NCBI GenBank assembly: GCA_951406725.2
Contig: OX597823.1
Span: 39,122,001 to 39,186,000, forward strand
From: Octopus vulgaris
Taxonomy: Eukaryota
Length of the DNA: 64,000 nucleotides
Reading direction: 5' to 3'
Position numbers and translations under genes: made by a program. Positions within the stretch are counted from its first letter, which is position 1; each line of letters opens with the position of its first letter. Below are positions 1,463 to 63,321 of the stretch, piece after piece. Below the pieces are notes generated by a model that was given only the letters and a program-made list of their open reading frames with translations, was not told where the DNA came from and searched no databases.

Positions 1463-1507
<45 letters not shown>

Positions 1508-2404
1508 CATCATTATTATTATTATCATTATTATTAATATTTCATTTGTTTTTACATTCTGAATTCAAATGCCACTGAAGCTGACTTTGCCTTTTAACCT
1601 CTCAGAGCTTATAAATATCAATTGAGTATTGGGATCAATGTAATCAATTTAACTTATCCCTCGAAGTTGCTGGCCTTGTGTTAAATTTGAAATTGTCATT
1701 ATTGTTATTATTTTGGGTTTGTTATTATTGAGTGAGAGTACAGCACATGCTATCAAAGTGACCTAGGGTACGAATATACGAAGCCCAATATACCCATCAT
1801 AACTACTCACCTGATAAGGGTATATCAGGCACATTCATCAAAACCATATGAATGTGACATGGTAACCTTTTATCAAAATAAACAGCACATGACCTTGCAG
1901 GTGGGGTCCAGTTAGAATTTTGTCCAGGTCGAGTAGCTCAGCCTGCACAAAAGGTCCCTGAATATAGGTTCCTTAAATCCTTAAAAATGTTTTAGCTCGA
2001 AGGCCGCGGCCATGCTGGGGCACCACCGCTGAAGGTTGTTTAAGAATTTGATCTCAAAATGTGAAGACAGACAAAATGCTACTAAGCATTTTTCTCGGTG
2101 ATTCTGACAGCTTGCTGCCTTAGTATAATATAGTATTGATGACAAACCACTGCAGAAATGTAGCTTTGGTTTGATTAAAATAATCAACTGAGATTTTTTT
2201 TTTGTCATTATGAAATGAGGGAAGAGTATTTTTAAAGCATGATTTGGTGAACGGGAGCATTGAACTAGAAACCGTTGAAAACCATGGATTTAATTGAGCC
2301 TCAAATATTTGACCTTGTGTCAATGTTTAGAGGTGAATATATTGGATGATAGAACTGGATGAAATTTTGTGGTCTGTTTTCTTACCATTGGTAATAACTG
2401 CTTT

Positions 2405-2405
2405 C

Positions 2406-2456
<51 letters not shown>

Positions 2457-2626
2457 GTGTGTGTGTGTGTGCGCGTGTGTGTGTCTGTATGTGCATGTAT
2501 GTATGTGTATGTATGCATATGTAATGCATAAGCATGTGAGTGAACATCTATGAATGTATGTTGTGTGCGTATGTTGTCTGTGCTTGTTGTCTATGTATGT
2601 TGTGCATATGTGTGTGTGTGTTTGAA

Positions 2627-2670
<44 letters not shown>

Positions 2671-2790
2671 CATGTATATGTGCATGTATATGTATATATG
2701 TATGTGTATATGTTGTATGTGTGTTTGTTGAGTGTGTGTCTGCATGTGTGTGTGTGTGTATGTATGTGTGTGTGTGTGTACGTGCGCATG
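2405..2790. repeat. (TG)n compound microsatellite
   Basis: Direct observation. Confidence 0.95.
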
Positions 2791-3941
2791 AAAGAAACTC
2801 CATTAGATGTTTTAATAAGACATTTATAACTTTTAAATGATTTGACTCAAAAGAAACCTCAAAGACTGTGTCATATCTTGAAACTAAATCAAATGACAAA
2901 AAGTTCTATATGAAATGAAAATACAATATTTTACCCTTTATCTTTATCTCCTAATTTTATCTCATCAACCAACAATTGCTGAAATAACCCCAAATCAGTA
3001 TCTGAACAAGGTAATGTGCAAAATAATTATTTTTATATTTTTAATTGCAAATTAATTGGAAGAGGGAGCAGAATGTGTTGTATGCTGGATGAACAGTGTT
3101 GATTTGTGATATAAAACAAATATGAATAAGTTGAAAAACAAACTGGACATCAAATATAAAGACCAGATATATACACCAACAACTGGACATGAAATATATA
3201 GACCATAAAATATACACCCAGAACTGGGCAGCAAATGTATAGACCATAAAATATAACCAAACTGAAAACCAAACATATAGGACTCCCTTTGTGCAAAAGC
3301 TGTTTTTGTTGGTTCAAATATGTTGTTGATGGTGTTTAGCCCTAGGTCAGCCCTGTTTGAGCAGGCACAGTCATAGGTATTAAAAAAAATAACCATCCTG
3401 TTTATTTTTCAGGAATAATGCACTTTGGATGTCACTTTTTAATGTTTCCCTTTTTCTGACAGTAGAGTGATGTTTGAAGGTGATTTGGCTGCTATATTTA
3501 ACAGGTAAATCATCCTTGTAGGAGTACCTTTTTATGGCATGCTGATAGGTGATTAAAACTGTTTGACAAAGTATCTTAAATCTGTAGTGGAATGGTAGAG
3601 TAAGGATTATCTGCAAGGGAATTATTTAGGGTTTAGTGGTAAGCTGACACAAGATTTGGTTGATGATCTGTATGTTTGATACCAAATATTGCTGGGCTTA
3701 AAGAATCCTAGATGAAATGGTACTATTTATCTTCCCGATGATAAATAAAAATAGAAACACGAATAACCGAATAAATAAACAAATAAACAAACAAAAATTG
3801 AGTTGAATTAATGATATTCTTCTGCGTAATTCTTAACAAAGTTTGTATATAATGGAAAGAGAAGAAAAAGAAAACAATAGAAAAGAATATAAACAATAAA
3901 TACACTGTACCTGAGCACTGTATACAATAAACCCATTATTA

Positions 3942-6989: not shown

Positions 6990-7900
6990 TCGTTAATTTT
7001 TGTGATGGCTGAAACAAAGAAACAGTGAGCTTCCTTGAAATTCTGTTTTCTGCTGGGGAAAATGGTGACCAAAACAGTTGTCATGCTTTAAACAACCTAC
7101 AAGGACGCTGCCATGAGCAAAACACAAGTTTACAAGTGGTTTTCACACTTTAAGAATAGTCATTTGTTGCTTGAAAACCAATCTCATTCAGAGTGACTGT
7201 TGACCTCCTGAATGAATGAAAAACATCACAAAGATTCATGAATTGATTTTGGAGGACCAAGGCTGAACAATTGATGAACTTGTTGGTATGACTGGTGTAT
7301 CCTAGAGCTCCTGCCAACGAACTTTAAGTGAGGAATTGCAAATAAAAAGAGTTGCAGCAAAATTTGTGCTTTGCTTGGTCATGGAAGATCAAAAGCAGTC
7401 ATGACTGAATGTGAGTCATTAACTGAAAAAGCAGTTGGAAGTTGACCCAAACATTTTTCTGAAGGTCATCATTGATAATGAAAGCTGATGCTATGGCTAC
7501 GCTTCGGGAACGAAGCAGCAATCAACTCAGCGGAAGCATTCAATGTCACCACATCTCAAAAAAAAAAGCCTGTCAAGTGAAGTCCAATGTCAAGATGATG
7601 CTGATTTCTTTCATTGATGTGAAAGGAATTGTCCACACAGAATTTGTTCCTCCTCGTCAAACTGTTAACCAGACATTTTACTTGGTAGTTCTGAAGCTTT
7701 TGGGAGACGTAGTGAGATGAAAACTCCCTGACTTGTGGCAAAGTGGAGAGTGGTGGTTTCATTGTAACAATGCATCTTTGCACACTGCCTTGTGTGTGAG
7801 ACAGTTTTTGACCAAAAACGGCATGACTCCACTTATGCACCCTCCCTATTCGCCCGATCTTACTCTCTGTAACTTTATTGTGTTCCCCCAAATGAAAAAC
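6990..7900 (+). mobile_element. Decayed mariner transposase
   Basis: SNVKMMLISFIDVKGIVHTEFVP, HPPYSPDLTLCNF. Confidence 0.85.
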
Positions 7901-8150
7901 TACACAATGACGAGAACACAAACACAAACTATACAAGGAAAATCTATGACATCTGTTTTTATTTTGCATGCTTTTCCATTTACTAATTATACATACCAAC
8001 CCATTGTGGTTTTGGATTTTTTTACAATGTAACGGTAAATAGATATTTTCTTCACAACTTCAATCACTGTTCTTTCATCTTTACATAATGGCAATCAATA
8101 AAGAACCAGTCCTTACAAACTGATTATGACTCCGACGTTCCATACTATTG

Positions 8151-9133: not shown

Positions 9134-12100
9134 TCATCATCATCATCATCATCGTTTAGCGTCCGCTTTCCATGCTGACATGGGTTGGACGGTGCAACTG
9201 GGGTCTGGGAAGCCGGAAGGCTGCACCAGGCCCGGTCTCATCTGGCAATGTTTCTACGGCTGGATGCCCTTCCTAACGCCAACCACTCCATGAGTGTAGT
9301 GGGTGCTTTTTATGTGCCACCTGCACAGGTGCCAGACAAGTCTGGCAAACGGCCACGGTTGGACGGTGCTTTTTATGTGCCACCGGCACGGAGGCCAGGC
9401 GAGGCTGGCAATGGCCACGATCGGATGGTGCTTTTTACGTGCCACTGGCACGGAAGCCAGTCAGGGCGGCACTGGCAACGGCCACGTTTGGATGGTTCTC
9501 TTATGTGCCACCAGCACTGAATCACAGCGACAATTTCCATTCATGTTGATCGATTTTGATTTTTGATTTTGTCATTTTTTGATTTTGTCATTTTTGATTT
9601 TGATTTTCACTTGCCTCAACAGGTCTTCACAAGTAGGGTTTTGTGTCCCAAGAAGGAAAGGTATGCATAAGCGGACTGAGGCCATGGGTGATGGTCTCAC
9701 TTGTCCTGCCAGGTCTTCTCACGCACAGCATACTTCCAAAGGTCTCGGTCTCTAGTCATTTCCTCGGTGAGACCTAAAGTTCGAAGGTCGTGCTTCACCA
9801 CCACATCCCAGGTTTTCCTGGGTCTGCCTCTTCCACAGATTTCCTCAACAGCTAGGGTGTGGCACTTTTTCACACAGCTATCCTCATTCATTCTCGCCAC
9901 GTGGCCATACCAGCGCAAACGTCTCTCTTGCACACCGCAACTGATGCTTCTTAGGTCCAACTTCTCTCTCAAGGTACTTACACTCTGTCGAGTATGAATA
10001 CTGACATTACACATCCATCGGAGCATACTGGCTTCATTTCTTGCGAGCTTACGCATATCCTCAGCAGTCATGGCCCATGTTTCACTGCCATGTAGCATGG
10101 CTGTTCGTACACAAGCATCATACAGTCTACATTTTACTCTGAGCGAGAGGCCTTTTGTCCCTAGCAGAGGTAAGAGCTCTCTGAACTTTGCCCAAGCTAT
10201 TCTTACTCTAGCAGTTACACTTTCAACACACCCGCCCCCGCTACTGACTTGGTCACCTAGGTAACGGAAGCTATCAACTATTTCTAGTTTTTCTCCCTGG
10301 AAAGTGACGGAAGTTGGTCTCAGAGCATTATCAGTGTTTATTGCTCCTGAGCATCTGCCACAGACAAAAACTATCTTCCTAGTTAGCCTTCCCTTGACGT
10401 TGCTGCACCTCTTGTGTGTCCATAGCTTACACTTGGTGCATCTTATAGAGTTTCTACCTATGCCTTTCCTACAGATCGAGCAAAGCCATCTACCTGAAGG
10501 CGTTTGTGACTTGTCTACCTTCCTACTTATTAGGACTTTGGTTTTAGCTAGGTTGACTCTAAGGCCCTTCGATTCTAATCCTTGCTTCCACACCTGAAAC
10601 TTCTCCTCCAGTTCTGATAGTGACTCAGCAATTAGAGCAAGGTCATCAGCATAGAGGAGCTCCCAGGGGCATCCTGTCTTGAATTCCTCCGTTATTGCCT
10701 GGAGGACTACGATAAATAGGAGGGGCTGAGGGCTGAACCTTGGTGGACCTCTACCTCTACCTGTAATTCTTCACTGTACTCGTAGCCAACCCTCACTTTA
10801 CTAGCAGCGTCCCTGTACATGGCTTGCACAGCTCTCACTAACCATTCATCTATCCCTAGTTTCCTCATTGACCACCAGATAAGGGATCGGGGGACCCTGT
10901 TGAAAGCTTTCTCCATGTCAACGAAAGCCAGGTACAGGGCCTTATCTTTGGCTAGATATTTTTCCTGCAGTTGTCTTACCAGGAATATGGCATCAGTGGT
11001 GCTTTTCCCTGGCATGAACCCAAATTGCATCTCATCTAAACTAACTCTCTCTCTAATTAGTTGGGCTATGACCCTCTCCGTAACCTTCATTACCTGATCC
11101 AACAGCTTGATACCTCTGTAATTATTTGTATCTAGGGCATCACCTTTACCTTTGTAGCAGTTGACTATTATGCTGCTACACCAGTCATTGGGTATGACTC
11201 CTTCGTGTATTACCTGGTTAACTATACGGGTGACTAGGCTATAGCCAACACTACCAGATATTTTGAGCATCTCTGCAGTAATTCCTGATGGGCCTGGGCT
11301 TTCCCTGTCTTCATGCTTCTAATTGCCTCAATTACCAAGGAACTGTCAACTTGGATAGCTGGTCTCTCCGTTGGGTCGACATTCGGCAGACTCTCTTTAT
11401 CCCATTCATTTTCTTCATTCAGCAACCTTTCATAGTGGCGTCTCCACACCTCTCTCTTTGCATCCTCATTTAGCGCAAGTGAACCATCATCCATGCGAAC
11501 ACATTTCTCTCCTACCACATCACGATTCTCTCTCACACACTGTCTTGCAACGCGAAATACCTCAAGTCTTTGGTCCTCACGGCGCAGAACATTGGCAAAT
11601 TTTTTCTTATCTGCTAAATAAACCTGTCTCCTAGCTTCTCTTTTGGTAGTCTGATACAATTCCCTGCTACCCCCATTTTTCCAGTCCTTCCAAGCCTGTC
11701 TCTTTTCTCTAATAGCCCTGTCTACAACATTGTTCCACCACCATGTTATTCTAGGTCGAGAGGGGACTTTGCACCAGCCACAGATCTGGTCAGTGGCTCT
11801 CAGCAGGTTGTCCCTTAGAAACGTCCAGTTGTCTTCTACCCCCTGTGATACTCTATCCCCTTCTACTTCGTCAAAGGCTTCAAGTAGCATGTCCCTAAAC
11901 CTCTGTCCATTTGCAGGATCTTTAAGCTTCCAGATCCTTCTTCTCCATGTTGGTGGTCTTCTGGTCGTCCTCTTAGTCCTGATCCTAAAGTCACTAACTA
12001 CCAGTCTATGTTGTGGGGTACATTCTTCACCTGGGAAGGTTTTGGCATTTATAAGCAGCCATCTTTCCCTTTTCCTGGCAAGGATGTATCAATTTGGCTG

Positions 12101-12565
12101 GTATGTCGACCCGATCGGTAGGTGACTAAGTGGCTGGTAGGTTTCCTGAAGTTAGTGTTGCAAACCATGAGATCATTTGCGTCGCAGAACTCCAGGAGCC
12201 TGGTTCCCTCCTCATTGCGGGAACCATAGCCATAGCCTCCATGTACACCATGGAAGCCCCCAGCACGTTTTCCAACATGCCCATTGAAATCACCAGCCAC
12301 AAAGAGAAGGTCTCTGTCATTTGTCAACGAGGTAGTCTGCAGTAAGGCGTCATAGAATTGGTCTTTCTGTCCATCGGGTAGCCCTGGCTGAGGGGCATAA
12401 GCCGATATAATGGTTGCTAATCCATGATGAAGCACTATTCTAATCTTAAGTATTCTGTCACTTACTCTGATTACCTCAAGTACCTTATGTACCAATTTTT
12501 CAGCGATAAGTATACCCACACCTCCAACCCCGTCAGTGTTTCCTGCCCAGAAAATCTTGTACCTG
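9134..12565 (-). mobile_element. RTE-clade LINE, 5'-truncated and frameshifted (APE + RT + Cys-rich finger, repetitive 3' UTR, (GAT)n tail)
   Basis: APE motifs GVGGVGIL, AYAPQ, GDFNGH; RT motifs NYRGIKLL, QFGF, FVDMEKAF, HQGS, LLYADDL; ORFs 12049-12588, 11234-11890, 10707-11270, 9697-10593. Confidence 0.92.
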
Positions 12566-12851
12566 TGTGTATATATATATATACACACACAGCAATAAGA
12601 AAATGGAGGGGATCAAGAGGTGGTACTCATCAACTTTTAGACATTATATTATGTCTATTTATTTATTGGTACATAAATTAAGAGTAAAAAACTTTTTTTT
12701 ACCCTCACCCATTTATTATATTCAGTAGTGTAATTGCCACACAAAAAAAAAAACCCACTTGTGTATTAATAATTGGTTTTTCTGCCAGCAGTATATTGGA
12801 TAGATATTATCCCTTAGTTGGTTGGATTAACAACCTCTAACTCTTTTGGAA

Positions 12852-13480: not shown

Positions 13481-14075
13481 TCTAAATAGGAAAATCTGCA
13501 AACAGATCTCTGACTTGTTTTGGAGAATTTGTTACAGTTGGTTCCTCCAGAGTCATATCCCAATGATGATCATATCTGTCATAAAAAAATCACATTAAAA
13601 AATTGCTGTAAATAATTGCTGGATTTTGTAATTAATTTCAATTATTCCCCAAATTTATTTCCAAGTTATAAAAATTGTTATAAAAAAAAATTCATCACAA
13701 AAAAAATCATGTAAAAAAAATCACTGAAAGCAATTGTAATAATGAAAACTTAGGAATCCAAAATTTCAGGATTGTGGGTCCGGATTTGGCCTGGAATATT
13801 TTAATTTACTCATAAAGTCGGCCAGATTCCAAAATGGTATGATATGTTGGGCTACAGCCTCTAAGAGTAAAGTTGAAAAAGTGTGACACACTGACATACT
13901 GCCATTTGCATTTATTATATATATACAGTAAAAGCAATTAAGATTCAAGTGAGTTCTGTTGAATTCACATGAATGCGGTACTTAACTTAGATGCACCAGA
14001 AATCTATATGGTATTAACCATAAGATAATGCGTGGTGATTATAAACAAGAAAAAAGCAACAAAAATGGATCAATA

Positions 14076-14165
14076 TTTCGGTACAATTGTTTCGTACGAA
14101 GACCACCTTTATTAAGGTTGCAAATATTGCAGCAAATACAAGTGACCCGTACTCATCAGCCGAAA
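14076..14165 (-). ncRNA. Type I hammerhead ribozyme motif (mirror copy)
   Basis: Reverse complement of 14311-14400. Confidence 0.85.
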
Positions 14166-14310
14166 ACATCTGAGTTCTCGTAACATTTAAGGCTGAGCTA
14201 CACTCTGAAATATCAGGGATAGTTCTATAAAAATGATTTTTATAGAACTATCCCTGATGTTTCAGGAGTGTAGCCTCAGCCCCTTAGATGTTACGAGAAC
14301 TCAGATGTTT

Positions 14311-14400
14311 TTTCGGCTGATGAGTACGGGTCACTTGTATTTGCTGCAATATTTGCAACCTTAATAAAGGTGGTCTTCGTACGAAACAATTGTACCGAAA
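14311..14400 (+). ncRNA. Type I hammerhead ribozyme motif with long stem II
   Basis: UUUCGG-CUGAUGA-GUACG...CGUAC-GAAA-CAAUUG-UA-CCGAAA: intact core, 6-bp stem I, self-complementary stem III, GUA site at 14394. Confidence 0.85.
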
Positions 14401-14431
14401 TATTGATCCATTTTTGTTGCTTTTTTCTTAT

Positions 14432-14479
<48 letters not shown>

Positions 14480-14587
14480 TGTTTGTTTTTATGTTGTTAT
14501 AATAAAGACAGTTTTACATTAGTCTGATGGGTTACTGTATGCTTTTGTAGAGTGCAAATTTATTATTCTTATACAAGAATTTTGTTG

Positions 14588-14632
14588 ACAGTTACTTCAA
14601 AGTTTCATTCAGTTAAGCCATCATCAGACTAT
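14588..14632 (-). ncRNA. Degenerate type I hammerhead motif
   Basis: AUAGU-CUGAUGA-(14 nt, poor stem II)-GAAA-CUUUGAAG-UA-ACUGU. Confidence 0.5.
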
Positions 14633-14647
14633 TCTGTTCTTACACGA

Positions 14648-14784
14648 GGCACAGGAGTGGCTGTGTGGTAAGTAGCTTGTTTACCAACCACATGGTTCCG
14701 GGTTCAGTCCCACTGCGTGGCACCTTGGGCAAGTGTCTTCTACTATAGCCTCGGGCTGACGGAAACTGAAAGAAGCCCGTCGTA

Positions 14785-14827
<43 letters not shown>

Positions 14828-15030
14828 TTGTGTGTCTGTGTTTGTCCCCCTAGCATTGCTTGACAACAGATGCTGGTGTGTTTATGTCTCCGTTACTTAG
14901 CGGTTCGGCAAAAGAGACCGATAGAATAAGTACTGGGCTTACAAAAGAATAAGTCCTGGGGTCGAGTTGCTCGATTAAAGGTGGTGCTCCAGCATGGCCG
15001 CAGTCAAATGACTGAAACAAGTAAAAAAGT
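14648..15030 (+). mobile_element. Second tRNA-derived SINE family
   Basis: gtggctgtgtggtaag A-box-like, ggttcagtccc B-box-like, ccttgggcaag; internal TA/TG microsatellite. Confidence 0.7.
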
Positions 15031-15039
15031 GAAAGAGAG

Positions 15040-16080
15040 TGCTTTTGTAACATTAACTGAAAAACAGGAAAAAAATGCAGCGTCAACCAATACATTTCTC
15101 TATGAAAAACATACCAATACCCACAAAAAAAGTTACCTGAAAACTCTACAACACAAAGACAGAAAACTTTATAAAAGTACTCAGGTGGAAAATTTACCAT
15201 TATGAAAAAGACCAAAAAGAGAAACAGCGAACCAACAAATATGGATTTAAGGCAGTCAAATGTCAGCCTCCCAGCTCATTTGAAGATGACTTATTTGCAC
15301 TGACTATGCAAATAAAATTCACCAAACAAACCAATAAATTGTAGAAAGAATTGAAACAGAAAATCAACCACAACAAAAAAACCCCCCAAAAAACAAAAAA
15401 ACAAACAAACCCAACTCTATTTGTAAAATTGGACAAGACAAACAACTTCTACCAGATAAGTAGAATCTCTTATACCTGCATTCTTTGTAACATAATCTCC
15501 AACACATACAAAAAACAACAACAATAAAATAAACACCACAGCCAAAGAAATATCAAAATATCCACTAAACTTAAAATAGACATTAACACCAAAATGCTCA
15601 TATATAATGATGAAAGACTGCAAACCAAACTTCAATAGCAACCTATCCATCAGACATAAGCACAATTAGTAAAAAAAATCCTAAACAAAAATGGAAGCCA
15701 CTTCTTCCAGTTCAACTTAAAAGACTATTAAGCGTTAAAAACAAAACCTTTCATTATAGCTGCTTTGAACTTCACAATAAACACCAAAATAGAAACAATA
15801 CTGCAAGCAAGAAAATTGCTCCTCTTCCACAACAATGCTTGCTGGATTAAGAAAAACATTAAAGAACCACTTGATGTAAGCATGGGCTCAAAGGACTCAG
15901 CAGAGATAAGTGACACCATGGATCTTGAGATGTTAGAAAAATTATGCAAAAATTTCCATACATCTCAGGTGGTCTATTGAGGGATTATTGATTACTCCTA
16001 CTAAGAAAATTCAACCCACAAAAAACTGATAAATCTACATCACCTCTTCAAAACATTGGGTTTCTCAATCACAGTAGAAA
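15040..16080 (+). mobile_element. Decayed Penelope-like retroelement RT region
   Basis: Ordered frameshifted motifs MKNIPIP, NKYGFK, FEDDLF, DKTNNFY, MKDCKPNF, ARKLLLFHNNACWIKK, DVSMGSKDSAEI, as recalled for Penelope-like RTs of marine invertebrates. Confidence 0.75.
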
Positions 16081-16142
16081 CACAAAATCCAGGTCATGTG
16101 CCTATAGTAGAAAGGATTATTATGATTATAATTATTATTGTT

Positions 16143-16211
<69 letters not shown>

Positions 16212-17212
16212 GAGATTATTATTATTATTATTAAATTATATCATATTTTCATTTTCCTTTTCATACATGAATATATATAGATATTGATAAATAATATTTA
16301 TTTCTCACCAGATGGAGTATTTTTTGGTGAACTTACCATCATGGAACAGTACATTATATATATATTTGTATATATCCACACACCCTCTATATCAGCCCCA
16401 CTTTAGCAACTATCTGTAATAGAATTGGATGAAATTTTATAAACAAACACCAAAGAAACTCTATCTCCAGAAAGCAGGAAGTTTAAAATATCTATATATC
16501 AATTAGATTGCTTATAGAACAATGAACACCTGGAGAGAGAAACATAAGCATACAACCTCTACACAAATACTTTTATGAAAACCAAAGCACAAGAGAAACA
16601 ATTGTCTATACTAAAATAGCCATGACAAGCCTGACCCTAACAGATGAAAACAATAAATACCTTATATAACTACAAATAAAAATATGACCAACCTAAACTC
16701 ACCACATACCTACATTCTTTTGCGAATAATAGTTGACATACTCAATTACTTAGTGATTAAATACTGGACTTTTGTACCTTTGACTTTTGTACCTTTGATC
16801 TTTGACCAAAGCAAAAGGATTAAATCCAATAATACCAAAAGCAACAAAAATACTGTCAAGCCTTGTGCCTACCTAACAAAAGAGAAACACCAAAGTTCTA
16901 CATGCATGAATAAATTCTAAAGGAATATATAACTAACTCCAATTCATCACAGGGATTCAAGGGGCCACAGTTATTTTATGCCTTGCCAAAACAGCTGAGG
17001 GATCTTCATGAGTATGAGTAGATGTTTTCAAGACACAATTTGATTTCCTGAACCTATATCACAGTAAGAAACTCAAAAGAGGGCAAAAGTGTTGAACTCC
17101 CTCCTTCATCAAAAGCCAATCACATAAGAATGGCCATTGAAAAGGTTATTACACTGGCAGTGCTCCAGCATGGCCACAGCCTTTGGGTTGAAACATATAA
17201 TAAAAGAATATG

Positions 17213-17249
<37 letters not shown>

Positions 17250-18684
17250 TGTATTGAGGTGTGAGGTCAACACTGTTAAACAATGAATAATTAAACCAAA
17301 TATAGGCAAACTGAATACTCAAATTTGTAAAGAATTTAAAAAAAAATTTAAATTAGACAGTAGTAGTAGCCACAGCAGCAACAGCAAGAACAACACCAAA
17401 GAATGTAAAATAGTCACATAGGATAATTAATTACATAGGGCAAGTTACCTGGTTTCCATAGCATATTAATGACTGAGATTACAACATCCTTCTTGAATGG
17501 GATGTCAAACTGTTCCAAGGTTACTCATTTACAGCTGAGAGGTGTGGAGTAATGTGAAATGAAGTGTTTTGCTCAAGATCATATTGCACTGCTTGTGTCA
17601 AGAACTGAAACCATGAGCTTGCAATTATGAGTGCAACAGACTAACCACTACACCAAGACATATCCAGGTATATATATTTTTTATTGCTCTGTCACCAGTT
17701 ACATGGTTGGCTATCAATACAAATGAATAGATAATGAAACTGAACTATTGGGAAATATTAATTTTCTCCTATAAATTTACATATTGATTTTTTTTCTGTA
17801 GATTTGAAAAGCTGATTGTGGTTTTCACCCAAAATAAAATAATACAAAAATCAATGAGGGACAGATACCCAGTTGCTCAACCTGCTAGAGATCGCAACCA
17901 AATCTCCTTGAAATCACACTCTACTGTTTTAAAATTTGAAGGACACATTAAGCAATCTAGTTATCAATACTTTTTGGTTTTATTTGTTGAGTTAGGAGGA
18001 ATGGGCAGCTTCCACGACTTTTGTAGGTCCTCCAAGAGTGGAGAGGTTGATACTGCTCATGTCACACTTAAAATCTTGAAGGTTAATCTGTGTGAAAGAT
18101 ATGAGCAGAGAGAAGATTAGAGAGGTCCCATGTTCAGGGACTGAAGGACTAGCAATAGGGGTTAGTGTGGGAAATGAGAGTGGGGTTGCAGAGATGAGTG
18201 GGGGAAGGGTGCCTTATTAGTGGATGTACATGTCCATCTAGCTCTAAGGAACAGAGGTCATAATAATAGTGATAGAAAAGATGGAGAGAGTGGAGGTAAC
18301 ATACCTTTGGGCCAGCAATTAGAATGTGTCCAGTAGTGATTTAATGCCAATCAGTCAAGGACTCTTCTCTTGAAGTGGTCCAGGATATCAGTGTGTGTGT
18401 AACAGCGACACTATTCCAGCGGTGGGGGCGTTAAAGCTACAGTATGAGCCTGACTTGAGCTTTGTAGGGAGTCAGTAATTGCTGACAAAAGATGGGATAG
18501 TCATGGCTGGAATTCCTTTGATTATTGGTCAACTCAGTCAGAGATAATTTGGGGTTAAACAACAGCAACAACAACAACAAATGCAACAAAGATCAAACAT
18601 GGACATCATATAATACAAAGGACATACTCATCACCAGACATTTCTCATCCTTCAACATTCTCTGATGCCCTGATTTATATGACA

Positions 18685-18728
<44 letters not shown>

Positions 18729-18732
18729 TTCT

Positions 18733-19200
18733 GAGTGAGAGAGCAGTGCATGCCATCAAAGTGACATGGGTACAAAATATATGATGCCCATTATACCCGT
18801 CATGACTGCTCACCTGATAAGGGCACAGCAGACACATGCATCACAACCATGAGTATGTGACATGGTGATCTCATATGAAGATAAATAGTGCATGACCTTA
18901 CAGGTGGTGCCCAGTTAGAATTTTCTTCAGGTTGAGTAGCCCATCCTGCTCAAAAAGGTTCCTGAATAAGGTTTGTTTAAGGATGATGAACAAAACACCC
19001 ATGTTTCTGGAAATGAATTATCCATATCCTTAAAAAAAAATTCCTCACAACACATGGAACTGGTCAAGGTCAAGCAACTGTCAAGCAAATCTGTAGAATT
19101 GAGCAGAATATTTGTTGTAGCTTTTACACCAAGACAAAAAACATGTACATGATAACACTTCCAATCAGTTCAGGTCAGAAGCCATGACAACTGTGCATCG
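18733..19200. repeat. Unclassified interspersed repeat associated with (TTA)n; other copies at 1-360 plus 1030-1190, 1730-1980 and 40930-41030 (inverted)
   Basis: Shared gtgcatgcca...cccagttagaatttt...ttgagcagaatatttg...cagaagccatga. Confidence 0.7.
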
Positions 19201-19227
19201 GGGCATTTATTATTATCATTATTATTC

Positions 19228-21210
19228 AGTAGTTTTATTTCTATAGTGTGTTTTCACTTCACTACTTACTGCAGCCATGTGTGTTTTGGGTATGTGCTGT
19301 GGTTTGCTGTGATGCTCTTATGGTTACTGTATTGAAAGTGTTTTGTGTAGGATGTGTGCAGTGCCTAGTAATGCAATTTTCTGTATGTTACATGTATTTG
19401 TAAGTCCTGGTGTTTTTGTTATGTATTTGTCTGAACATTTTTTTTATCATACCTAATGTGCCTACTATGATAGGAATTGTTTCTGTTTTTAGATTCCACA
19501 TTCTGGTTACCTCTATTTCCAGGTCTTTGTATTTTGAAAGTTTCTCCATTTCTTTTAGAGACACGTTGTCATCTGCTGGTATTGATTTATCAATTAGAAA
19601 GCATTTTTTTCCTTCATAATCTTTGACAACTATATCTAGTCTGTTGGCCTTAATTTCTCTATCTGTGTGTATTGGCATATCCCAGAGTATGGTTGCTTTC
19701 TCGTTTTCTGTGACCTTTTCTGGAGTGTGCCTATATAATCTTTTTCTGTTGTTCCATAGTGTTGGCACAGCTTCCAGTTTATGTAGGTCCCAACACTGTC
19801 ATGTCTGTGAATATATTCCTTCTTATCCAGGACTGGGCAGCCAGAGATAATATGATTTATTGTTTCTTGTCCATCCCCACATATTCTGCAGTTACTTGTT
19901 ATGGTTATTTTCATTATATGTTTTTGGTAATTTCTGGAGGTGAGGCTTTGGTCTTGTGCTACAATTAAAAATTCTTCAGTCTCTGCTTTGAGTCCTGAGC
20001 TTCTCAACCATTGCTGGGATTTTTCTGTGTCTATTTCTTTTGCATTTAGTTTAGCTCGGTATTTGTCATGAAGGGACTTTTCTTGCTATCGTTTTATCAT
20101 GGTCAGTTGCCGTTCTAGTTTTAGTTTGGATTTCATTTGTTTTATAGCTTTTGTTGTTTCTTCTTCTTCATATTTGTTAGGTAGTATTTCTTGTTTGTAT
20201 TTGTCAGCTTCCTTAAATACTGAAAACAGATTTTTGTTTTGCTTGTGTTTTGTGGCTATTTGTATTAGTTTTCCTCGCTTCTGAAGTAGGTATTTCTGCA
20301 GTCCTATGGTGGTTATTTTATAATAGTTTTCCAGCTGTATAAGGCCTCTACCACCTTCTATACGTTGTATATATAGCCTTTCTATGTCAGATTTTGGGTG
20401 GTGCATCCTAGATCCTGTCATTATTTTTCTTGTTTTCCTGTCTAGTTTGGTTAGCCCATTTAGTATCCAGTTGAGGATATTATAGCTGTAACTTATAACA
20501 GGGACGGCTAAAGTGTTAGTACCTATTATCTTGTTTTTAGCATTGAGCGCTATTTTCAGTATTGATCTAATTTGTCTATAGTATTCTTTCTTTATTTTCT
20601 TTTTCATTTGTGTGTGCTGTATCATATCTAGTTCATTGATTCCTAGATATTTATATGTCTGGCTCTGGTCTAATTCTCCTATTTCATTGGTTTTATCTAG
20701 TGTGATGTTGCTACTCTTAACTAGTTTTCCTCTTTTCAGGGTTGCTTTGGCACATTTTTCTAATCCAAATTTCATATCCATTTCTTTGGTAAACCTATGT
20801 ACTGTCTGTAGTAGTGCTTCCAACTGTTTATCATTTGTAGTGTATAGTTTTAGGTCATTCATATATAAAAGGTGGCTGATTGTTTTACTGCAACATTTGT
20901 ATCCACATCCAGTTCTGTTTAGCATGTCAGATAAAGGTGTCAGTGCCAAACAGAAAAGGAGTGGAGAGAGCATGTCTCCCTGGAATATTCCTCTTCTAAT
21001 GGGGATGGCTTTGGTTTTCACGAGTCCCTCTTTTGTTTGGAGCTGTAGCACTGTCTGCCATTTATTCATAGAGTGTCTTATATATTTTATAATTATTGGT
21101 GCTACCTTGTTGATTGCTAGTGTTTCAAGGATCCACATGTGAGGAATACTATCAAAAGCCTTTCAGTAGTTGATCCAGGCCATACAGAGACCTTTCCTCT
21201 TTCTGTAGCT
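19228..21210 (-). mobile_element. R4/Dong-type non-LTR element (RT, CCHC finger, restriction-like endonuclease) between (TAA)n tracts
   Basis: RRGIFQGDMLSPLLF, SHLLYMNDLKLY, CRICG...ETINHIISGC, RHD, ANRLDIVV...EKLSKY; TTA repeats on both flanks. Confidence 0.85.
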
Positions 21211-21864
21211 TATTATTATTGTTGTTGTTGTTGTTATTATTATTATTATTTAGATACTGTCAGAAAGGAAACATAATTCCTTGTAAAAAAACCTGACTTG
21301 TTAATGTTTCAGTTTAAGCCAGCCTGATCAAAAGTGGTCCATTCATGACTTCCCCATCTTGTGCTTGTAGGTCTAGTGTAATGTATGACTACATTATCCA
21401 GTGGATCCTTCCCTAAAATGGTAGGGTGTGCTTTAGGGAAGATTCAGGGCTGGTTGTCAGGTAATGAGACAGATTTGTTAAAATTGAGCCCCATGCCAAG
21501 AGAGGGCCCCAAACACATTTGAGCACAGGTCACTGATGAATTTTTAGAAGGTCCTTGTGGCTGATGATGGAACATCAATGCTTTTTAGCTGGGACTGGCA
21601 TACTACATGAAGCATGAAACAATCTTCAGCTGTTGTAGAATAGAGGGCCCCATTAACAATTCTCTAATTGGGACCCACACTTTCTAATGCTGGCCCTACT
21701 TCTACTGAGTCAGGACACCCTGTTCAACTCTTCTTTGAGAAAATTCATTGCTTCTAGCTGACGCTAGGTTGTTTCTTTTAGATTAACAATTCCTTTGGGA
21801 AAGGCATAAATACATCTTCATTGATGTTCAAGATGTCTAATTATGCAAAATAGAATTGTTATGA

Positions 21865-22432
<568 letters not shown>

Positions 22433-22850
22433 TTTATGAGCCCTAATAATCGCTAGTGCACTTTGTTAAACTTGCTTTAGACTTTTCGTGTCTCAAAGGT
22501 TTCAAGTTCAATTCCAGCATGCACCACTATAGATTGATGATTTTGTATGAGAAAGAAACGAACAAGTTAATTAGTATTAATTAACAACACTTTTATTACT
22601 TTAAGTTAAACTACAAACAGAACTGTCAGAAATTCTATAAAACAATGTTGGAAAAAAGAAGATATAGTCAAAGAATACAGGGATAGACTTTGTTTTTGAT
22701 TTTTTTACAAGAGATTATAAACAGTTATTTGTTTTATTTTTTATTTATAATTTCATGGAAAAAGAAAATTCAGTTTCTGACCCTGAATACTTTGTTATTT
22801 TGTTACCACCCAATTTAAAGCTTCATGAATCAGAGTCAAAATTCTTTTCC

Positions 22851-22887
<37 letters not shown>

Positions 22888-23364
22888 TAAGAAGGTAAGG
22901 GGAAAACTCATATCCTGGGTAGAAGTCAAATCTACATCAGATTAACAGTCATCATAGTCTTATGCCTTGCCTGTTTCCCAAGCTTGTAATTTTTTCAAAA
23001 TTTGATCAGATGTATGATAAAATCACAACTTGGTCATCACATCTCATTTCAAGTCTTTTGATTTATTTCTTATCTATTTAGTCTTTAAAACTAATTCTTC
23101 GAAATAGGTGTTTCCAGTTCTTAATATTAATGTTATAAAACTGTGACAATAAGTCGCCATTAGAATAAGTTTTTCATTAAACATAGCAGAAATTTTCTGT
23201 GAACTGGTCTACTGTCACTATTGTCAGGTTTCAAAAAAAAAAAAGGTTTTCTAGTCTTCCAGAATAAAATAAAAATCCCGGATTCTCCCTACCCCACTTC
23301 TTTATTGGATAATTTAAGAACTAATGGAAAGAATTGATATAAGCATAAAGTAATTGTTTCTAAT

Positions 23365-24590
23365 TTAGGCACAAAGCCAGCAATTTTGAGGGGAGAAGCT
23401 TGTTGATTGTAGTGACACCAGTATTTGACATTATTTTATCAGCCCCACAAGGATGAAAAGCAAAGTTGACATCAGCAGGATTTGAACTCAGAATGAAAAC
23501 TGCCAGAACAAATATTGCATGCCAACGTGCTACATTAATAATAATAATAATGATAATAATGATGGTTTCAAATTTTGGCACAAGGCCAACAATTTCGGGG
23601 GCAGGTCTACATTGATTAGATCAACCCCAGTGCTCAACTGGTACTTAGTTTATCGTCCCCAGTGGCATTTGAACCCAGAACATAATGATGGGCAAAATAC
23701 TACTATGGGGGAGGGGACTAATTGATTACATCGACCCCAGTGTTTCAATGGTACTTAATTTATTGACCCTGAAAGGATGAAAGGCAAAAATCAACTTGGT
23801 GGAATTTGAACTGAGAACATAAAGATGGGCAAAATACCGCTAAGCCTTTTGCCTGGATTGCTAACAATTCTTCCAGCTTGCCACCTTAATAATAATAATA
23901 ATAATCATCATCCTTTCTACTAAAGGTATAAACCCAGAAATTTTTTTTGTGGGTAGGGGACCAGTCAATTATGTTGACCTCAGTGTTTGTATCACAGTTA
24001 CTTAATTTATCAACTCTGAAAGGATGAAAGGCAAAGTTGACTTTGGCAGAATTTGAACTCAGAACGTTTAGACGGAAGAAATACCGCCAAGTATTTTGTC
24101 TGGTGCAATAATGATTCTGTCAGCTTGCCACCTTAATAATAAGAATCCTTTCTACTATAGGCACAAGGCCTGAAATTTGGGAGGAGGGGTTAAGCCGATT
24201 ACATTGACTCCAGTACGCAACTGGTACTTAATTTATCGACCCTAAAAGGATGAAAGGCAAAGTCGATCTCATGAATTTGAACTCAGAACATAGTGACAGA
24301 CGAAATATTGCTATGTATTTCGCCCGGCGTGCTAATGATTCTGCCAGCTCGCCACCTTAGTATAATAATAATCCTTTCTACTGAAGGTACAAGACCTTGA
24401 AATTTTGGAGGAGGGACTAGTCTCTTACATAAAGCTCAGTGTTTCACTGGTACTTAATTTATCGACCCCAATAGGATGAAAGGCAAAGTCCACCTCGGCG
24501 GAATTTGAACTCTGAACGTAGCGACGGGTGAAATACTTCTAAGCATTTCGTCCAGCGTGCTAACGATTCTGCCAACTCATCGCCTTAATG
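23365..24590 (-). mobile_element. Head-to-tail cluster of about 6 tRNA-derived SINE copies (Nin-like central domain)
   Basis: Repeated gagttcaaattc B-box and gcctttcatcctttcggggtcgataaattaagtaccag, separated by (AAT)n. Confidence 0.85.
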
Positions 24591-25529
24591 ATAATAACAA
24601 TAATAAATAGAAATGTTTTTAAAATTCTAAAGAGTATTGTCCCCTATTACAAAATTTCTGCTTTAGATTTTTTTAGAGGTTACGTTTCTCCCATAAATTG
24701 GTTCTAGAAAGACTAATAGACAGAATCATCGACTGCAACTTACTGATATGAATAAGGCCCTTGAAAGTTAGTAACACTTTTCTGGGATACTACAAGAATC
24801 ACAATTGGAGCTGATGATAACATAAAATAAATATTCGTCGATGAACTATAAATATCTTTTACATTTAAATAATAGAAAATATTCACAAGACGTAGAAAAT
24901 CGTGATAATGAAAATATATTGATGAGTTAGTTCCCTTAGATAGCACGGGTTATTTCCCTTGAAATTTCGAGTTTCCTGAATTATTCTCGTTCTATATCTT
25001 CTAAAAATATTAATTTTGGCTTCAATTGAAGAACATTTGGGTAGAAGAAATGGAAGATTGTTGACAGTGAAACGATGAGAATCTTTGCAATTTTCTTTAA
25101 TAAGAAACTGTTGTAAAAATAAATTAATTACAAATATGTCAAAAACTGCCCTTTTCATGGTTTTAAAAAAGAGGAAATCATGTGTGTGTATATATATATA
25201 TATATGTTTCCAGGTGATGTCCAATGGATATATATATATATGGAAGACTGCAAGTAACAATAAGTGACCATAAGCATGTATATCATGCTCTAGTTAATAA
25301 TTATTTTCGAGTAACATATACCACTCGACTTTCATTAAGTATAAAAGCAATGAAGACCGCCGTATAAACAGTCCTAGATACCAAGGTGAAAAATGTGGTA
25401 ATATCAGGTACTGAGCATGAGTACATATATATATATTGTGTGTGTGTGTAAAACAGGGAAAATAGTCTTTTGTAAGGCAGATGCACAGGTACAATAAACA
25501 CTAGAAATATACAGAAAATAGACTTCATC

Positions 25530-26420
25530 AAATGCCAGGGAAGATACCTAGAAGTAGTTGATAGCTTTCATAATCTAGATGACCAAGTCAGCAGTGGTGG
25601 GGGATGCTCTGAGAGCATAGTTGCTAGAGTAAGAATAGGTTGGGCAAAGTTCAGAGAGTTTCTACCTTTGTTGGCAACAAAAAGCCTCTTCCTCAGCGTG
25701 AAAGGCAGATTGCATTATGCCTGTGTGTGAAGAGAAATGCTACATGGCAGTGAAACAAGGGCTGTGATGGCAGAGGACATGCAAAAGCTTGAAAGAAACG
25801 AATCTAGTACACTCCATTAAATGTGCAATGTCAGTGTGAATCTACAGCTGAGTGTTAATGTTTCAAGAGAAAAATTGGGCATAAGAGGCCTCAGATATGG
25901 TGTGCAAGAGCAATGAGACCAACCCATATCTCCCAGATCTAGCATATGGCATCATTGCATCAATGAGAGATAGCTGAGAGGTTTGTTATGATTGTATGGT
26001 CATGTGATGCATAAGAATGAGGACAGCTGCATACAGAAGTGCTGATCTCTAACTGTGGGGGAACCTTAGAAGAGATAGACCCAGGAAGACATGAAATGAG
26101 GTGGTGAAGCATGATCTTTGAATGTGGGGTCTCATGGAGGCGATGACAAGTGATCATGTCCTTTGGTGATTTGCTGTGTTAGAGACTTGTCAAGCCAAGT
26201 GAAATCATAGTTGTGGTTGGTGCTGGTGACATGTAAAAGCACTCATACCAGTGACATGCAAAAAGGCACCCACTACACTCCTGGAGTGGTTGGTGTTAGG
26301 AAGAACATCCAGCTGTAGGAATCAAGCCAAAATCAGACTGGAACATGGTGCAGCTCTCTGGCATACCAGTTCCAGTCAAGCTGTCTAACCCATGCCAGCA
26401 TGGAAAGCAGGTGTTAAATA
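25530..26420 (+). mobile_element. RTE LINE 3' fragment, decayed
   Basis: Sequence similar to the 9134-10290 copy (DQVSSGGGC, WAKFRE) plus the 3' tail. Confidence 0.8.
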
Positions 26421-26423
26421 ATG

Positions 26424-26454
<31 letters not shown>

Positions 26455-27188
26455 TACGTTTGCATTTGTGTGAATGTGTTGCATACACATATAGAATGTA
26501 TACATACACAAAAAAATGTATGCATGTGTGTGTGTAGTGAAAGAGAGAGAAAGATACACAGAGGCTTAGGTGACACCTAATTATATATATTAGGTATATA
26601 TATATATTAGAGGCAGAGTAAGAACGTGTGTGGGAAAATTTAAGGGAGCTGTTATCTTTCCTGGTTATGAAAGGTTTCTCTTTGTGTTTAAAGAAGAGAT
26701 TGGCTGATGCTTTCAGATGAGGTTCGATGTTGTATGGTAATAAAACCTGGAAAATAAATGTGGGAGATGAGCAAAGGTTGGAAAGAAACAAGGCAAGCAT
26801 CCTTCCCTTGTAAAACAGCACAGATTAAGTTGACAAAATATACAGGTACACAAAAAATCTGCTGTTGTGTGCAAGAAAGAAGACTGTAAAGGCAGCATGG
26901 AGAAGAGACTGATGTGGAGGATAAGAATTGAGTAAAAAAAACTGTCAAGAAATCCAAATGAAAGAAATTTGTGGAAGAGGAATATCATGGAAGACATAGA
27001 TGTGTTGAAGGCTGGTCTGAAGAACTTAAAAGATCCTAAGAAATAGCAATATGCTGTGCTGTGTGTATGTGTACGCACACACGCATGCACACACACACAT
27101 ACACACATGAAATAATTTGTCTTTAAGAGTAGGACATGAAGTAGAAAAACTACAATTAATAGCATGTAAATACTGGGTTCTATATATA

Positions 27189-27222
<34 letters not shown>

Positions 27223-27434
27223 GATATATATATGTAAGTGCATGTATGCATGTATGTATGATGAATGGATTTGCTTGTTTTTTTATGACAATCTAAATAG
27301 AAAACTCAATATCTTTTGGATAAAATACTAAATATTTATTTAGATGAATGCTAGCAGTTGTTTATATATCTAAATGTGCATGAAATATGCAAATATATAT
27401 AAACTGTATAGGTGCTAGGGAGTTTGACTAACTT

Positions 27435-27624
27435 AGCTTACAACTGCTTCTGCTATAAGATGCAGTGGACTCATAGTTGAGTGCCTGTATAATACCTTAT
27501 AGCTTCATCAGAGCCTCAATTTTGAAGTACAATTTTACACTTTGGCTCCAATGAAGCTTTAAGATGTCACTCAGGCACTCAACTATGAGTTTACTGCATC
27601 TTATAGCAAAAAGAGCTGTAAGTT
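27435..27624. repeat. Imperfect inverted repeat (about 81-bp arms, 28-bp spacer) with decayed outward-facing hammerhead motifs
   Basis: Minus arm reads GGCU-CUGAUGA-AGCUAUAAG...CUUAUAGCA-GAAG-CAGUUG-UA-AGCU; plus arm is more decayed. Confidence 0.7.
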
Positions 27625-27774
27625 AATGAAGTTCATAAAATAATTGCTTATTCCTTTGTCATTTCATTTTCTTATTATCACTCTATACTTGTCTAACACT
27701 TTGTTCTGAAGCATATATATATTGGGCTCTACACCAGGTCATTAGTCTTGCAATGCCTAAGCAATATACACACA

Positions 27775-27805
<31 letters not shown>

Positions 27806-28389
27806 GCCAATCAGTCAAGGACTCTTCTCTTGAAGTGGTCCAGGATATCTATGCGTGTGTAACAGCAACACTATCCCAGCTGTGGGAGCATTAAAGCTAC
27901 AGTATGAGCCTGACTTGAGCTTTGTAAGGAGTCAGTAATTGCTGACAAAAGATGGGATAGTCATGGCTGGAATTCCTTTGATTATTGGTCAACTCAGTCA
28001 AGAGATAACTTAAGGTTATTGAATAAAAGAGCAGTCTGGTAGTTTTGTGAACCAAGGATATAAAAGTATAAAAATCATAGTTGAGCTAGAGTCCATATAT
28101 GGATATTGGTGGGTTGTAGTTAGCTATTAGTATACAGATACTGATACCTGGAGGACTCTTGTATATGACATCATACTGAAAGGATCTCTATGTACAGATA
28201 CAGTGGACTAATCCTTTATGGAAACTATGTCATTTCAAGATTCACTGTATTACTTTAATCATTTCTGTATACATATATAGGGTAGTTTTTATTTTGTGCC
28301 TGAAGAAAAGCTCCCTCTTAAAATGTTTCACATACACACACACACACATACACACATTAATTAATGAAATTCCAACTTAGTCTGATTTC

Positions 28390-30262
28390 CAAGTTTTATT
28401 TTTTGCAATTTTTATAATTTTACAATATTTAAATAAACTAGTACTTTCATGCATCATGTAATCATCAGGTTTATGTAGTGACAAGCATGTTCCACAATTG
28501 ACATCTGCTAATTGTGGAACACGATTGTCACTACATAAACCTGATGATTGCATAACACGTGAAAGTACTAGGTTTATTTCAATATTGTAAAATTGTAAAA
28601 ATTGCAAATAATAAAAGGGGAAAATCAGACTAATTTGAATTTCATTGATTAATATAATCTTCTATATACACTTATATACTTATATATATATATATATGCA
28701 TATATATATTTATATATACACACACACAAACGTACACATACATATTTATGTTGCATTACATTATATTTCACAGATTTATTTTGTTATGAAAAAGAAACTG
28801 TGCTTTGTCATTTCATATGTTCTTCAGAAACTTGTAATATTTTGTGTCTGTAGATACAACATAAATTAATAAATAAATTCAAGACTTTTTCAGTGCAATT
28901 CTGAACAAATGAGCCAAAGTTAAATGTAGTATGGTGAGAATTAGGAAAGATAATATCAAAAAGTGAGTTCTTCATGGCTGATGGCATCAAAAGTTCACAT
29001 ACACACACACAAACACACACACACAGAAAGAGAGAGAGAGGGAAGGGGAGCGAGGGGGAAGGAGGGAGAGGTCTCCTTGATCATTGAATTAAGATTAACA
29101 GAAGCACTAGATAGTAATATTTTTTGAAGGTAAGTAGAAATAGAAGGTAAATTTACAAGTATGTGCCTCCCATAACCACAGAATTTAGCTTCTTTTTAAA
29201 AATGAAATTTAATGATATAATTTACTTTTAATAACAAGGATAAATTGTGTGTTTATCAAAAAAAAACAAAAAAAAAACAGGCTCCTAAATTCAATGTTTC
29301 AAAATGGCATCCACTGGTAAGAAATTAATTTACAGAGTTTCTATATATGGTAGACTTTATTTCAGAACTGTCTCAAAGACAGTTATCTGCCTCAGGTGGG
29401 TCTGGTGGGGTGAAAATTTATTTGCAATATGCATTGATTAGTTTTGTTACACATGATTTCGCATTGCTGTGGAAGAATCATCAATAACAAAAACCCAGTG
29501 TAATTATTATTATTATTACATTATTGTTGTTGATGTTATCACTTATGACAAAAAGCCAAATCACTGTTTATTGGTAAATGTCTCAGCTGTTTGCCATTTT
29601 ATTTCCATTCAGTCTTTAATTTATATACAAACTCACACACACATACAAGCATATACATGCACGCGCGCACACACACATATGTATATACACACACATATAC
29701 ATATATATATACACACGTACATATATATATATACATACATACATAATATACATACACACATATATATACATATATACATACATATATACACACACAGATA
29801 TATATACATATATATATACATAATACATATATATACACACAGATATATATACATATATATATATACATAATACATACATATTTATTTTTATACACATATA
29901 CATACATACTCACACATACATATCCATGCATACTTTCTCATTTTTTTTAGTTATTTTTAATTCTTTTACTACAAAAAGTCAATAAAATCTACAAACAAGT
30001 CCTTACAGCTCTCACCACCTTGTTACAGGTTGTCAAGTGCAAGAGGAAGGATGATAGTTTTTCAAATTATGCCATTTATATTTAAGAATTGGCCAATTCT
30101 TGATGGTATAATCCAGTTTTAATTTGCCCACCCCATTTGTTTGATAAGCACAGGGCTTCAAATAACTGACATTAAGGGGTTAGGGGTAATGTCAGCATGA
30201 ACAAAATATTTTGTTGATGTGGCCACTACTAATGGCTTCAGTCACAAGTCTTCAATCATAAA
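28390..30262 (-). other. Probable EGFR 3' UTR (3' end uncertain)
   Basis: Immediately downstream of the stop; several minus-strand AATAAA hexamers (plus-strand tttatt near 29567, 28573, 28396). Confidence 0.35.

Positions 30263-63321
<33,059 letters not shown>

Follow-up and report, generated by a model that had tools for sequence, protein, structure and literature searches.

Hammerhead motifs at the termini of eight dispersed repeat families, of which seven follow their own Penelope-like open reading frames, in an octopus receptor gene region

The 64,000-nucleotide stretch of the Octopus vulgaris genome analysed here, called the window throughout, carries an EGFR-type receptor tyrosine kinase gene on its minus strand and eight loci with hammerhead-like ribozyme motifs. 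We take the receptor to be EGFR-like from its domains and sequence. Its last coding exon seen lies at about 30.3–30.6 kb, identified from translation and without a Pfam match; the loci at 14–28.6 kb therefore appear to fall outside the coding region, and only four of the eight (39.3, 51.2, 55.3 and 61.4/61.8 kb) lie between exons seen. Inspection of the sequence confirmed all seven hammerhead-like loci reported by an initial annotation of this DNA, both in position and in the string spanning A15.1 to U16.1, and revealed an eighth that it had missed, an inverted pair at 28.47/28.54 kb with stem III AGUACU. The features of the window are the following.

596-1039, 9697-12612, 19388-21162, 45319-45729 and 47353-47997, minus strand: non-LTR retrotransposon ORF fragments, which we take to be RTE-, R4/Dong- and CR1-like
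7556-8059, 52546-52875 and 54109-54468: presumably Mariner-type transposase fragments
13926..14433, both strands: family A head-to-head insertion with Hydra-like PLE 3′ ends, set among (TA)n repeats; tail of 116 bp, confined to the left arm
14076..14165, minus strand: family A hammerhead, type I, intact; long stem II; stem III ACAAUUGU
14311..14400, plus strand: family A hammerhead, type I, intact; cut predicted after 14394
14545..14632, minus strand: short inverted arm of family B; hammerhead decayed, stem II broken, stem III ACUUUGAAGU
15050..16921, plus strand: long arm of family B with a decayed PLE RT in pieces (RWK and DKT motifs) and 3′ region; own ribozyme end absent
27433..27755, both strands: family C head-to-head pair; both hammerheads decayed, cores from 27511 (minus) and 27548 (plus); right arm tailed
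28364..28680, both strands: family H head-to-head pair, Neptune/Nematis-like PLE; cores at 28468 (minus) and 28541 (plus), stem III AGUACU, U-U at 10.1/11.1
39243..39815, both strands: family D head-to-head pair (Penelope/Poseidon-like pLTR) with tRNA-type head, (AAT)n and ACGU hammerhead
39428..39508, minus strand: tRNA-like head of family D with A-box- and B-box-like motifs, the start of the repeat
49387..49812, minus strand: host exon, tyrosine kinase domain of the EGFR-like receptor (PF07714, E 7.8e-20)
50345..51310, plus strand: family E solo copy, 5′-truncated, Neptune/Nematis-like; end of the GIY-YIG ORF (50345-50450) and CA-rich 3′ UTR
51188-51222, plus strand: family E hammerhead, decayed; core CUGUUGA against the family's CUGUCGA
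55078..55366, plus strand: family F solo copy flanked by (TA)n tracts; Hydra-like sister of family A; antisense to the host gene
55248-55336, plus strand: family F hammerhead, intact; one G-U in stem III
60042..60329, minus strand: host exon, growth factor receptor domain IV (PF14843, E 9.3e-9)
61296..61901, both strands: family G head-to-head pair, Hydra-like by endonuclease similarity; right-arm core CCAAUGA, decayed, at 61702

The 14.6-kb motif and the RT-bearing arm at 15.05–16.92 kb are the short and long arms of one unit. In the family D pair both hammerheads are decayed (cores at 39332, minus, and 39686, plus) and the tail belongs to the right arm; the A-box- and B-box-like motifs in its head are putative. 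The initial annotation had also described four inverted repeats with ribozymes pointing outwards. Their orientation is as described, but the left (61.4 kb) arm of the family G pair retains the 3′ half of the ribozyme only, without the 5′ half, that is, the CUGAUGA strand. No clear target-site duplication was found at seven window units, and several units sit within microsatellites.

Motif frequency in the window exceeds that of dinucleotide-shuffled sequence, as the annotation's reading required. A strict type I descriptor recovers three intact motifs (14159, minus; 14317, plus; 55254, plus), where 300 block dinucleotide shuffles average 0.007 and never reach three, and a relaxed descriptor gives 11 matches against 3.85 ± 1.8 (0 of 100 shuffles as high). 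Seven of these 11 fall at named loci and four look like chance; the copies at 14.6, 28.5 and 51.2 kb are not picked up. Searches against Rfam returned no hammerhead family among 82 window matches at E ≤ 5, and its models presumably suit forms with a short stem III and a long stem II poorly. The CUGANGA/GAAA/UH core with stems I–III is present in three window copies and in most copies of families A, F, D and H, and is decayed or variant in families B, C, E and G. Every window locus proved to be a member of a dispersed repeat family, with 43 to 3,901 first-look candidates per query, and the several distinct ribozyme-bearing families that had been proposed amount to eight. It is hardly credible, then, that the motifs arose by chance or that the host retained them to regulate its EGFR-like gene. 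The relaxed descriptor does yield about four chance matches per window and four loci do lie inside the gene, but the excess of strict matches over shuffles refutes a chance origin, as does the membership of every locus in a dispersed family; window copies are decayed as much as their relatives or more, and the sole intact intronic copy, that of family F at 55.3 kb, is antisense to the gene.

By the strict, unbiased descriptor the ribozyme density of the window is ordinary, at 2 loci in 64 kb as against 5 in 400 kb. The eight families themselves occupy 8 loci in the 64-kb window and 13 in 400 kb of arbitrary stretches, a contrast that is inflated because the families were chosen from the window itself. 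The latter figure extrapolates, roughly, to about 90,000 loci across the 2.8-Gb genome, and long inverted hairpins would therefore be frequent in its introns.

Upstream walking traced an RT and/or GIY-YIG ORF of its own for seven of the eight families: RT plus endonuclease for A, B, D and E, and endonuclease for F, G and H, in H including the thumb region. In family A, RT motifs and GIY-YIG occur in copies L062 and L061 (Pfam E 0.0009, below the curated cut-off), and the ORF has 3,111 relatives at E ≤ 0.001. The family F endonuclease is 67–72% identical to that of A and was found upstream in 3 of 30 loci. Endonuclease matches lie downstream of the RT in 13 of 30 RT loci of family B, of which copy L307 preserves the order RT–linker–EN–ribozyme. 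Of 30 family D endonuclease loci, 28 have the tRNA head downstream and 21 the ribozyme tail, and a ribozyme lies downstream in 19 of 30 family E loci chosen by ORF end. For family G an endonuclease lies 1.1–1.4 kb upstream in L372, L382 and L394, and for family H the linkage is seen in L402, L410/411, L412 and L416. Family C yielded no ORF after two walking steps, the walk ending in a microsatellite about 330 bp upstream, and no in-register profile match. Endonuclease fragments near L187, L243, L075, L080, L038 and L118 were rejected as unrelated neighbours or parts of the opposite arm. Further features were noted among the family copies. In family A the ORF contains a long asparagine-rich stretch between the RT thumb and the endonuclease (L062:4900-5650, L061:1950-2600). 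At L061:4880-5143 (minus), 1.4 kb past the 5′ end of the element, a Pif1-type helicase ORF fragment, which we take to be Helitron-like, is joined to a family A tail. In family C, the nearly identical copies L428 and L435 (at G000:C1:137754870 and 137756530) lie 1.66 kb apart in direct orientation, apparently within a host gene and with exons between them.

The endonucleases form three groups, comprising A, F, B and G; E and H; and D. Family A has Hydra-like traits in its CxCX5C linker, flanking motifs and (TA)n target, and family B in its linker and its RWK and DKT motifs, and F and G are Hydra-like only via the similarity of their endonucleases to that of A (about 70% and 28–35%, respectively). 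Families E and H share a CX2-5CxxC linker and two cysteines between GIY and YIG, and D has a cysteine pair inside GIY-YIG and no zinc-finger linker. On the clade motifs of PMC8557442, and by motif rather than by tree, we designate A, B, F and G Hydra-like, E and H Neptune- or Nematis-like, and D Penelope/Poseidon-like; 'Neptune' for A, B, F and G was dropped in favour of Hydra-like on these motifs. Seven families with their own ORFs of three PLE types are therefore best regarded as autonomous with no single helper RT, and the one RT that the initial annotation had imagined them to share does not fit.

Stem III differs between families and is self-complementary in each. Thirty top loci were fetched per search, so that each alignment holds 29 to 44 arms; some of the loci overlap. 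The commonest string is ACAAUUGU in family A (34 of 36), AGUACU in H (34 of 38), ACGAUCGU in F (24 of 33, with the window's ACGAUUGU in 3), and ACAGCUGU in both G (17 of 29) and C (12 of 41). Family D has ACGU in 24 of 42, AUGU in 14 and ACAU in 3. In family E the outcome varies with the set: ACAU 13, ACGU 10 and AUGU 4 among 33 loci chosen by the window copy; ACGU 6, AUGU 6 and ACAU 1 among loci chosen by ORF. In family B (n = 34) the palindrome is not the commonest form, the counts being 15 for ACUUUGAAGU, 8 for ACUUCGAAGU and 3 for ACUUCAAAGU. The main or inferred stem III is a perfect palindrome in each family, with six different palindromes overall. These ancestral forms are inferred from paired C-to-T/G-to-A departures, which follow the pattern of CpG decay: GCAGUUGU, ACAU and ACGAUUGU are decayed ACAGCUGU, ACGU and ACGAUCGU, respectively, and not covariation, and ACUUUGAAGU is probably a decayed copy of ACUUCGAAGU. 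The co-varying stem III of the annotation thus stands as one palindrome per family, whereas four of the variants that it listed are decayed copies.

Compensatory change is visible between the sister families A and F, in which 6 of 21 pairs are changed on both sides, in stems I, II and III and a distal hairpin. In this comparison 97.5% of cells are paired and slid controls give 0–1 double changes; the double changes all trace to the single divergence of these two families, and the number of pairs does not exceed that of the shuffle control (325 of 500). In sets chosen by upstream sequence, core positions 3–5 read CUG, CCA and CCG in 5, 3 and 3 of 13 family C copies and in 6, 3 and 4 of 14 family G copies, which points to a putative ancestral CCGAUGA, and the family E core carries U at position 6.

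Family D combines its ORF with a terminal repeat of tRNA type. The repeat runs from a tRNA-like head, which directly adjoins the stop codon of the ORF in 28 of 30 loci, through (AAT)n to the ribozyme, and 27 of 30 heads have a ribozyme tail downstream; ARAGORN found no tRNA in any of the 30 family D loci. Among 44 ribozyme-selected arms, 16 begin no more than 12 nt from the head start, another 14 begin within the head and 12 beyond it, and 2 extend into the ORF. A head behind its own ORF, together with many copies that begin at the head start, argues for a SINE-like terminal repeat, and the repeat probably behaves like a SINE through Pol III transcripts; family D would then often be copied from RNA beginning at the tRNA-type promoter. 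It may accordingly be read as a Penelope/Poseidon terminal repeat whose tRNA-type promoter spawns SINE-like copies. Core position 7 is A in 14 and U in 6 of the ORF-linked copies against 2 A and 21 U in head-start copies (Fisher p 7e-5; one of about 170 columns), and this difference may mark a separate source or reflect how the sets were selected. In three separate family D loci (L042, L053 and L055) the (AAT)n tract that links head to ribozyme contains the same 600-bp repeat; either these loci form a subfamily, or the repeat has (AAT)n as its target.

A quite different account would make the families non-autonomous retrozymes or SINEs that borrow one Penelope RT, with family D a separate tRNA SINE. 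Copies are indeed mostly short and non-coding, family C was found without an ORF, and the D arms that cluster near the head start, the scarcity of arms entering the ORF, the heads that precede ribozyme tails and the contrast at position 7 can all be taken to favour borrowing. Yet the upstream ORFs of seven families belong to three groups, the position 7 contrast may stem from set selection, and a head that adjoins the stop codon of its own ORF led us to reject D as a stand-alone SINE mobilized by Penelope. Retrozymes, moreover, would be expected as head-to-tail arrays, which these families lack (2 direct arrangements among 224 loci). We regard borrowing as improbable. The account that we hold with considerable confidence is that the eight families are 5′-truncated ends, seven behind their own PLE ORF, with hammerheads predicted to be active solely as dimers and with pairs that would each stem from one twin-primed insertion.

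The arrangement of copies supports the suggestion that a Penelope-like RT makes head-to-head inversions. Scored within about 1.5 kb, 224 distinct matched loci (of 240) comprise 61 head-to-head, 2 tail-to-tail and 2 direct arrangements and 159 solo copies. Tails, scored in families A, F and D alone, occur on exactly one arm in 12 of 12 A, 9 of 10 F and 25 of 29 D pairs (46 of 51); the other five pairs are tailless and none has two tails. In the family F exception, L109, the two arms share one flanking sequence, which suggests a later duplication. Of 22 A and F pairs, 8 have a tail arm that extends further 5′ than its partner, 10 have one that falls short and 3 have arms of equal reach, with 1 unscored; the shortfall of the tail arm at the 5′ end is about 1.8 kb in L063 and about 1.5 kb in L064. 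Arms of A and F pairs carry the same subfamily allele in 35 of 35 comparisons, where 15 discordant would be expected (A, 29 of 29 at three linked sites in 12 pairs; F, 6 of 6; sites are linked), and this absence of discordance led us to reject an origin of the arms from different source elements. Agreement is weak among the older families, whose arm alleles are discordant in 26 of 118 comparisons against 37 expected (D) and in 14 of 56 against 18 expected (H). Arm-to-arm identity compared with identity to other copies fails to separate the models, the arms being more alike than the family average in 22 of 60 pairs.

Non-nested arms, shared alleles and a single tail, together with in vitro data from the green anole, make twin priming on the RNA of one source element the simplest reading. 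The available text of PMC11167929 describes a protein, that of Poseidon_Ac, which resembles family D in clade type, cuts and extends both target strands, has two RT start sites that bracket and define the tail, and is predicted to form a dimer; it draws no connection between these start sites and the arms of inverted pairs. In a single insertion event both cut target strands would prime cDNA, the inner start site giving rise to one cDNA and the outer, or tail, site to its partner, and the two cDNAs would be joined at their truncated 5′ ends. Taken alone, twin priming is in our judgement the probable, though by no means assured, origin of the head-to-head pairs: later deletions at the palindrome centre could make nested arms non-nested, and gene conversion between arms could yield shared alleles. 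Fold-back, the copying of a strand that has folded back onto itself, proposed for rotifer Penelope elements on an antisense template, also accounts for subfamily alleles common to both arms. The available text of PMC3846280 interprets the palindromes found where inverted copies meet as self-priming; in family D a short hairpin at the start of the head frequently marks the middle of the junction, and several junctions have microhomology or short palindromes. A fold-back copy has to sit inside the first arm at both ends, however, and the 10 of 22 A and F pairs with a shorter tail arm therefore argue against it, barring later deletion, as does the fixed inner site at which one arm ends in nearly all pairs. 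We consider fold-back unlikely, although it deserves to be kept in mind. The pair counts bear on how PLEs form head-to-head pairs.

Twin priming could be extended by a more speculative proposal, one that we rate as doubtful, in which the palindromic stem III is an RNA pairing signal that holds two transcripts of one source in a dimeric PLE protein, with both strands primed. Such a signal would explain why the palindrome is retained in three clades though cleavage is dispensable in vitro, and would also explain one-tailed head-to-head pairs and overlapping, non-nested arms.

Predicted folding bears on what these insertions may do in a host transcript. The 389-nt family A palindrome is predicted to form a single hairpin (−318 kcal/mol) in which each ribozyme is paired with its own complement. 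One ribozyme per strand means that an inverted pair has no dimer in cis, and a pair predicted to mask its own ribozyme in a hairpin makes intron cleavage unlikely. The family F copy is predicted to co-fold as a dimeric hammerhead; for the A, D, B, C and G copies the dimeric hammerhead was not the best predicted co-fold. Genomic copies are mostly dead. The seeding of introns with self-cleaving motifs, which the annotation had foreseen, is doubtful, with four of eight loci between exons, the intact copy antisense and the pairs folding into hairpins. Long double-stranded hairpins in introns, on these models, are plausible.

Much of this architecture is the published PLE signature and will therefore not surprise a specialist. 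The available parts of PMC4209133 and PMC6765202 describe type I hammerheads in metazoan PLE terminal repeats, together with their palindromic stem III, their folding as dimers, the diversity of their families and their occurrence as pairs on opposite strands, and weak, protein-assisted cleavage and dimer folding of PLE hammerheads are known from the literature. As in the text available from PMC4209133, the eight families are of type I with a palindromic 15.2–16.2/loop 3 and fit the dimer model, families B, D and E have an extra base after A9, and many sequence-diverse families per genome occur with compensatory changes and with opposite-strand pairs 100–700 bp apart. Unlike the minimal forms described there, stem II reaches about 55–65 nt in families A, F, C and G and is much longer; nor does that text give as PLE family traits the apparent CCGAUGA with unpaired 10.1/11.1 (A-A, C-A) of C and G or the U6 of E. 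Hammerhead variants with U4C, A6C and U-U at 10.1/11.1 appear in the accessible part of PMC3088659.

Comparison with the Hydra clade, as far as PMC8557442 was available, finds in common a C-terminal endonuclease, the CxCX5C linker (A and B), RWK and DKT in the RT (B), a lack of the cysteine pair inside GIY-YIG with flanking CxxC and CxH (A), (TA)n targets (A and F) and inverted 5′-truncated copies with a one-sided tail. By contrast, the tails of A and F measure about 100–116 bp against 30–40 bp published for that clade, and their 3′ UTRs, unlike those published, exceed 1 kb. File S2 of that source includes Hydra ribozymes with ACAG/CUGU and ACUU/AAGU stem III, and the ribozyme of Hydra-1_Obim, the published octopus Hydra family, matches none of the eight families. 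For Poseidon_Ac, the available text of PMC11167929 makes no mention of a tRNA-type promoter in the terminal repeat, unlike family D. The Pen2a/Pen2-4 elements of Adineta vaga, in the text available from PMC3846280, have head-to-head inverted pLTRs, a tail on one arm and no cross-mobilization between families, as here, and an asparagine-rich insert from RT to endonuclease, like family A; that source attributes the inversion to self-priming with an antisense RNA as template, against which the non-nested arms here argue. Animal non-LTR retrozymes, in the available text of bioRxiv 10.64898/2026.07.22.740005, have the type I hammerhead and a PLE origin in common with our families, but are non-coding head-to-tail arrays, whereas our eight consist of scattered ends, with an ORF linked to seven of them.

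Earlier descriptions of inverted copies tailed on one side exist (PMC8557442 and PMC3846280, in the parts available), and coleoids are described as rich in Penelope repeats in PMC8967140, whose available text does not mention ribozymes. A literature search, over the texts it could reach, found no publication on hammerheads of octopus Penelope elements, on Penelope twin priming, or on a Penelope-linked tRNA-derived hammerhead SINE or a Pol III/tRNA-type pLTR. The eight families, which include the young Hydra-like A and F (95–98% alike), are absent from the literature searched and may already be catalogued in Repbase or Dfam.

Other hammerheads came to light elsewhere in the genome. A 359-bp tandem array at about 2300–4550 of L485 (G000:C1:20000001-20010000) has an intact hammerhead per unit and is retrozyme-like, with five plus-strand and two minus-strand units back to back. 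Three more intact hammerheads with a long stem II, none of them belonging to the eight families, lie in arbitrary stretches (L507:1760, plus; L509, minus; L510:941, plus), and their stem III is palindromic or nearly so.
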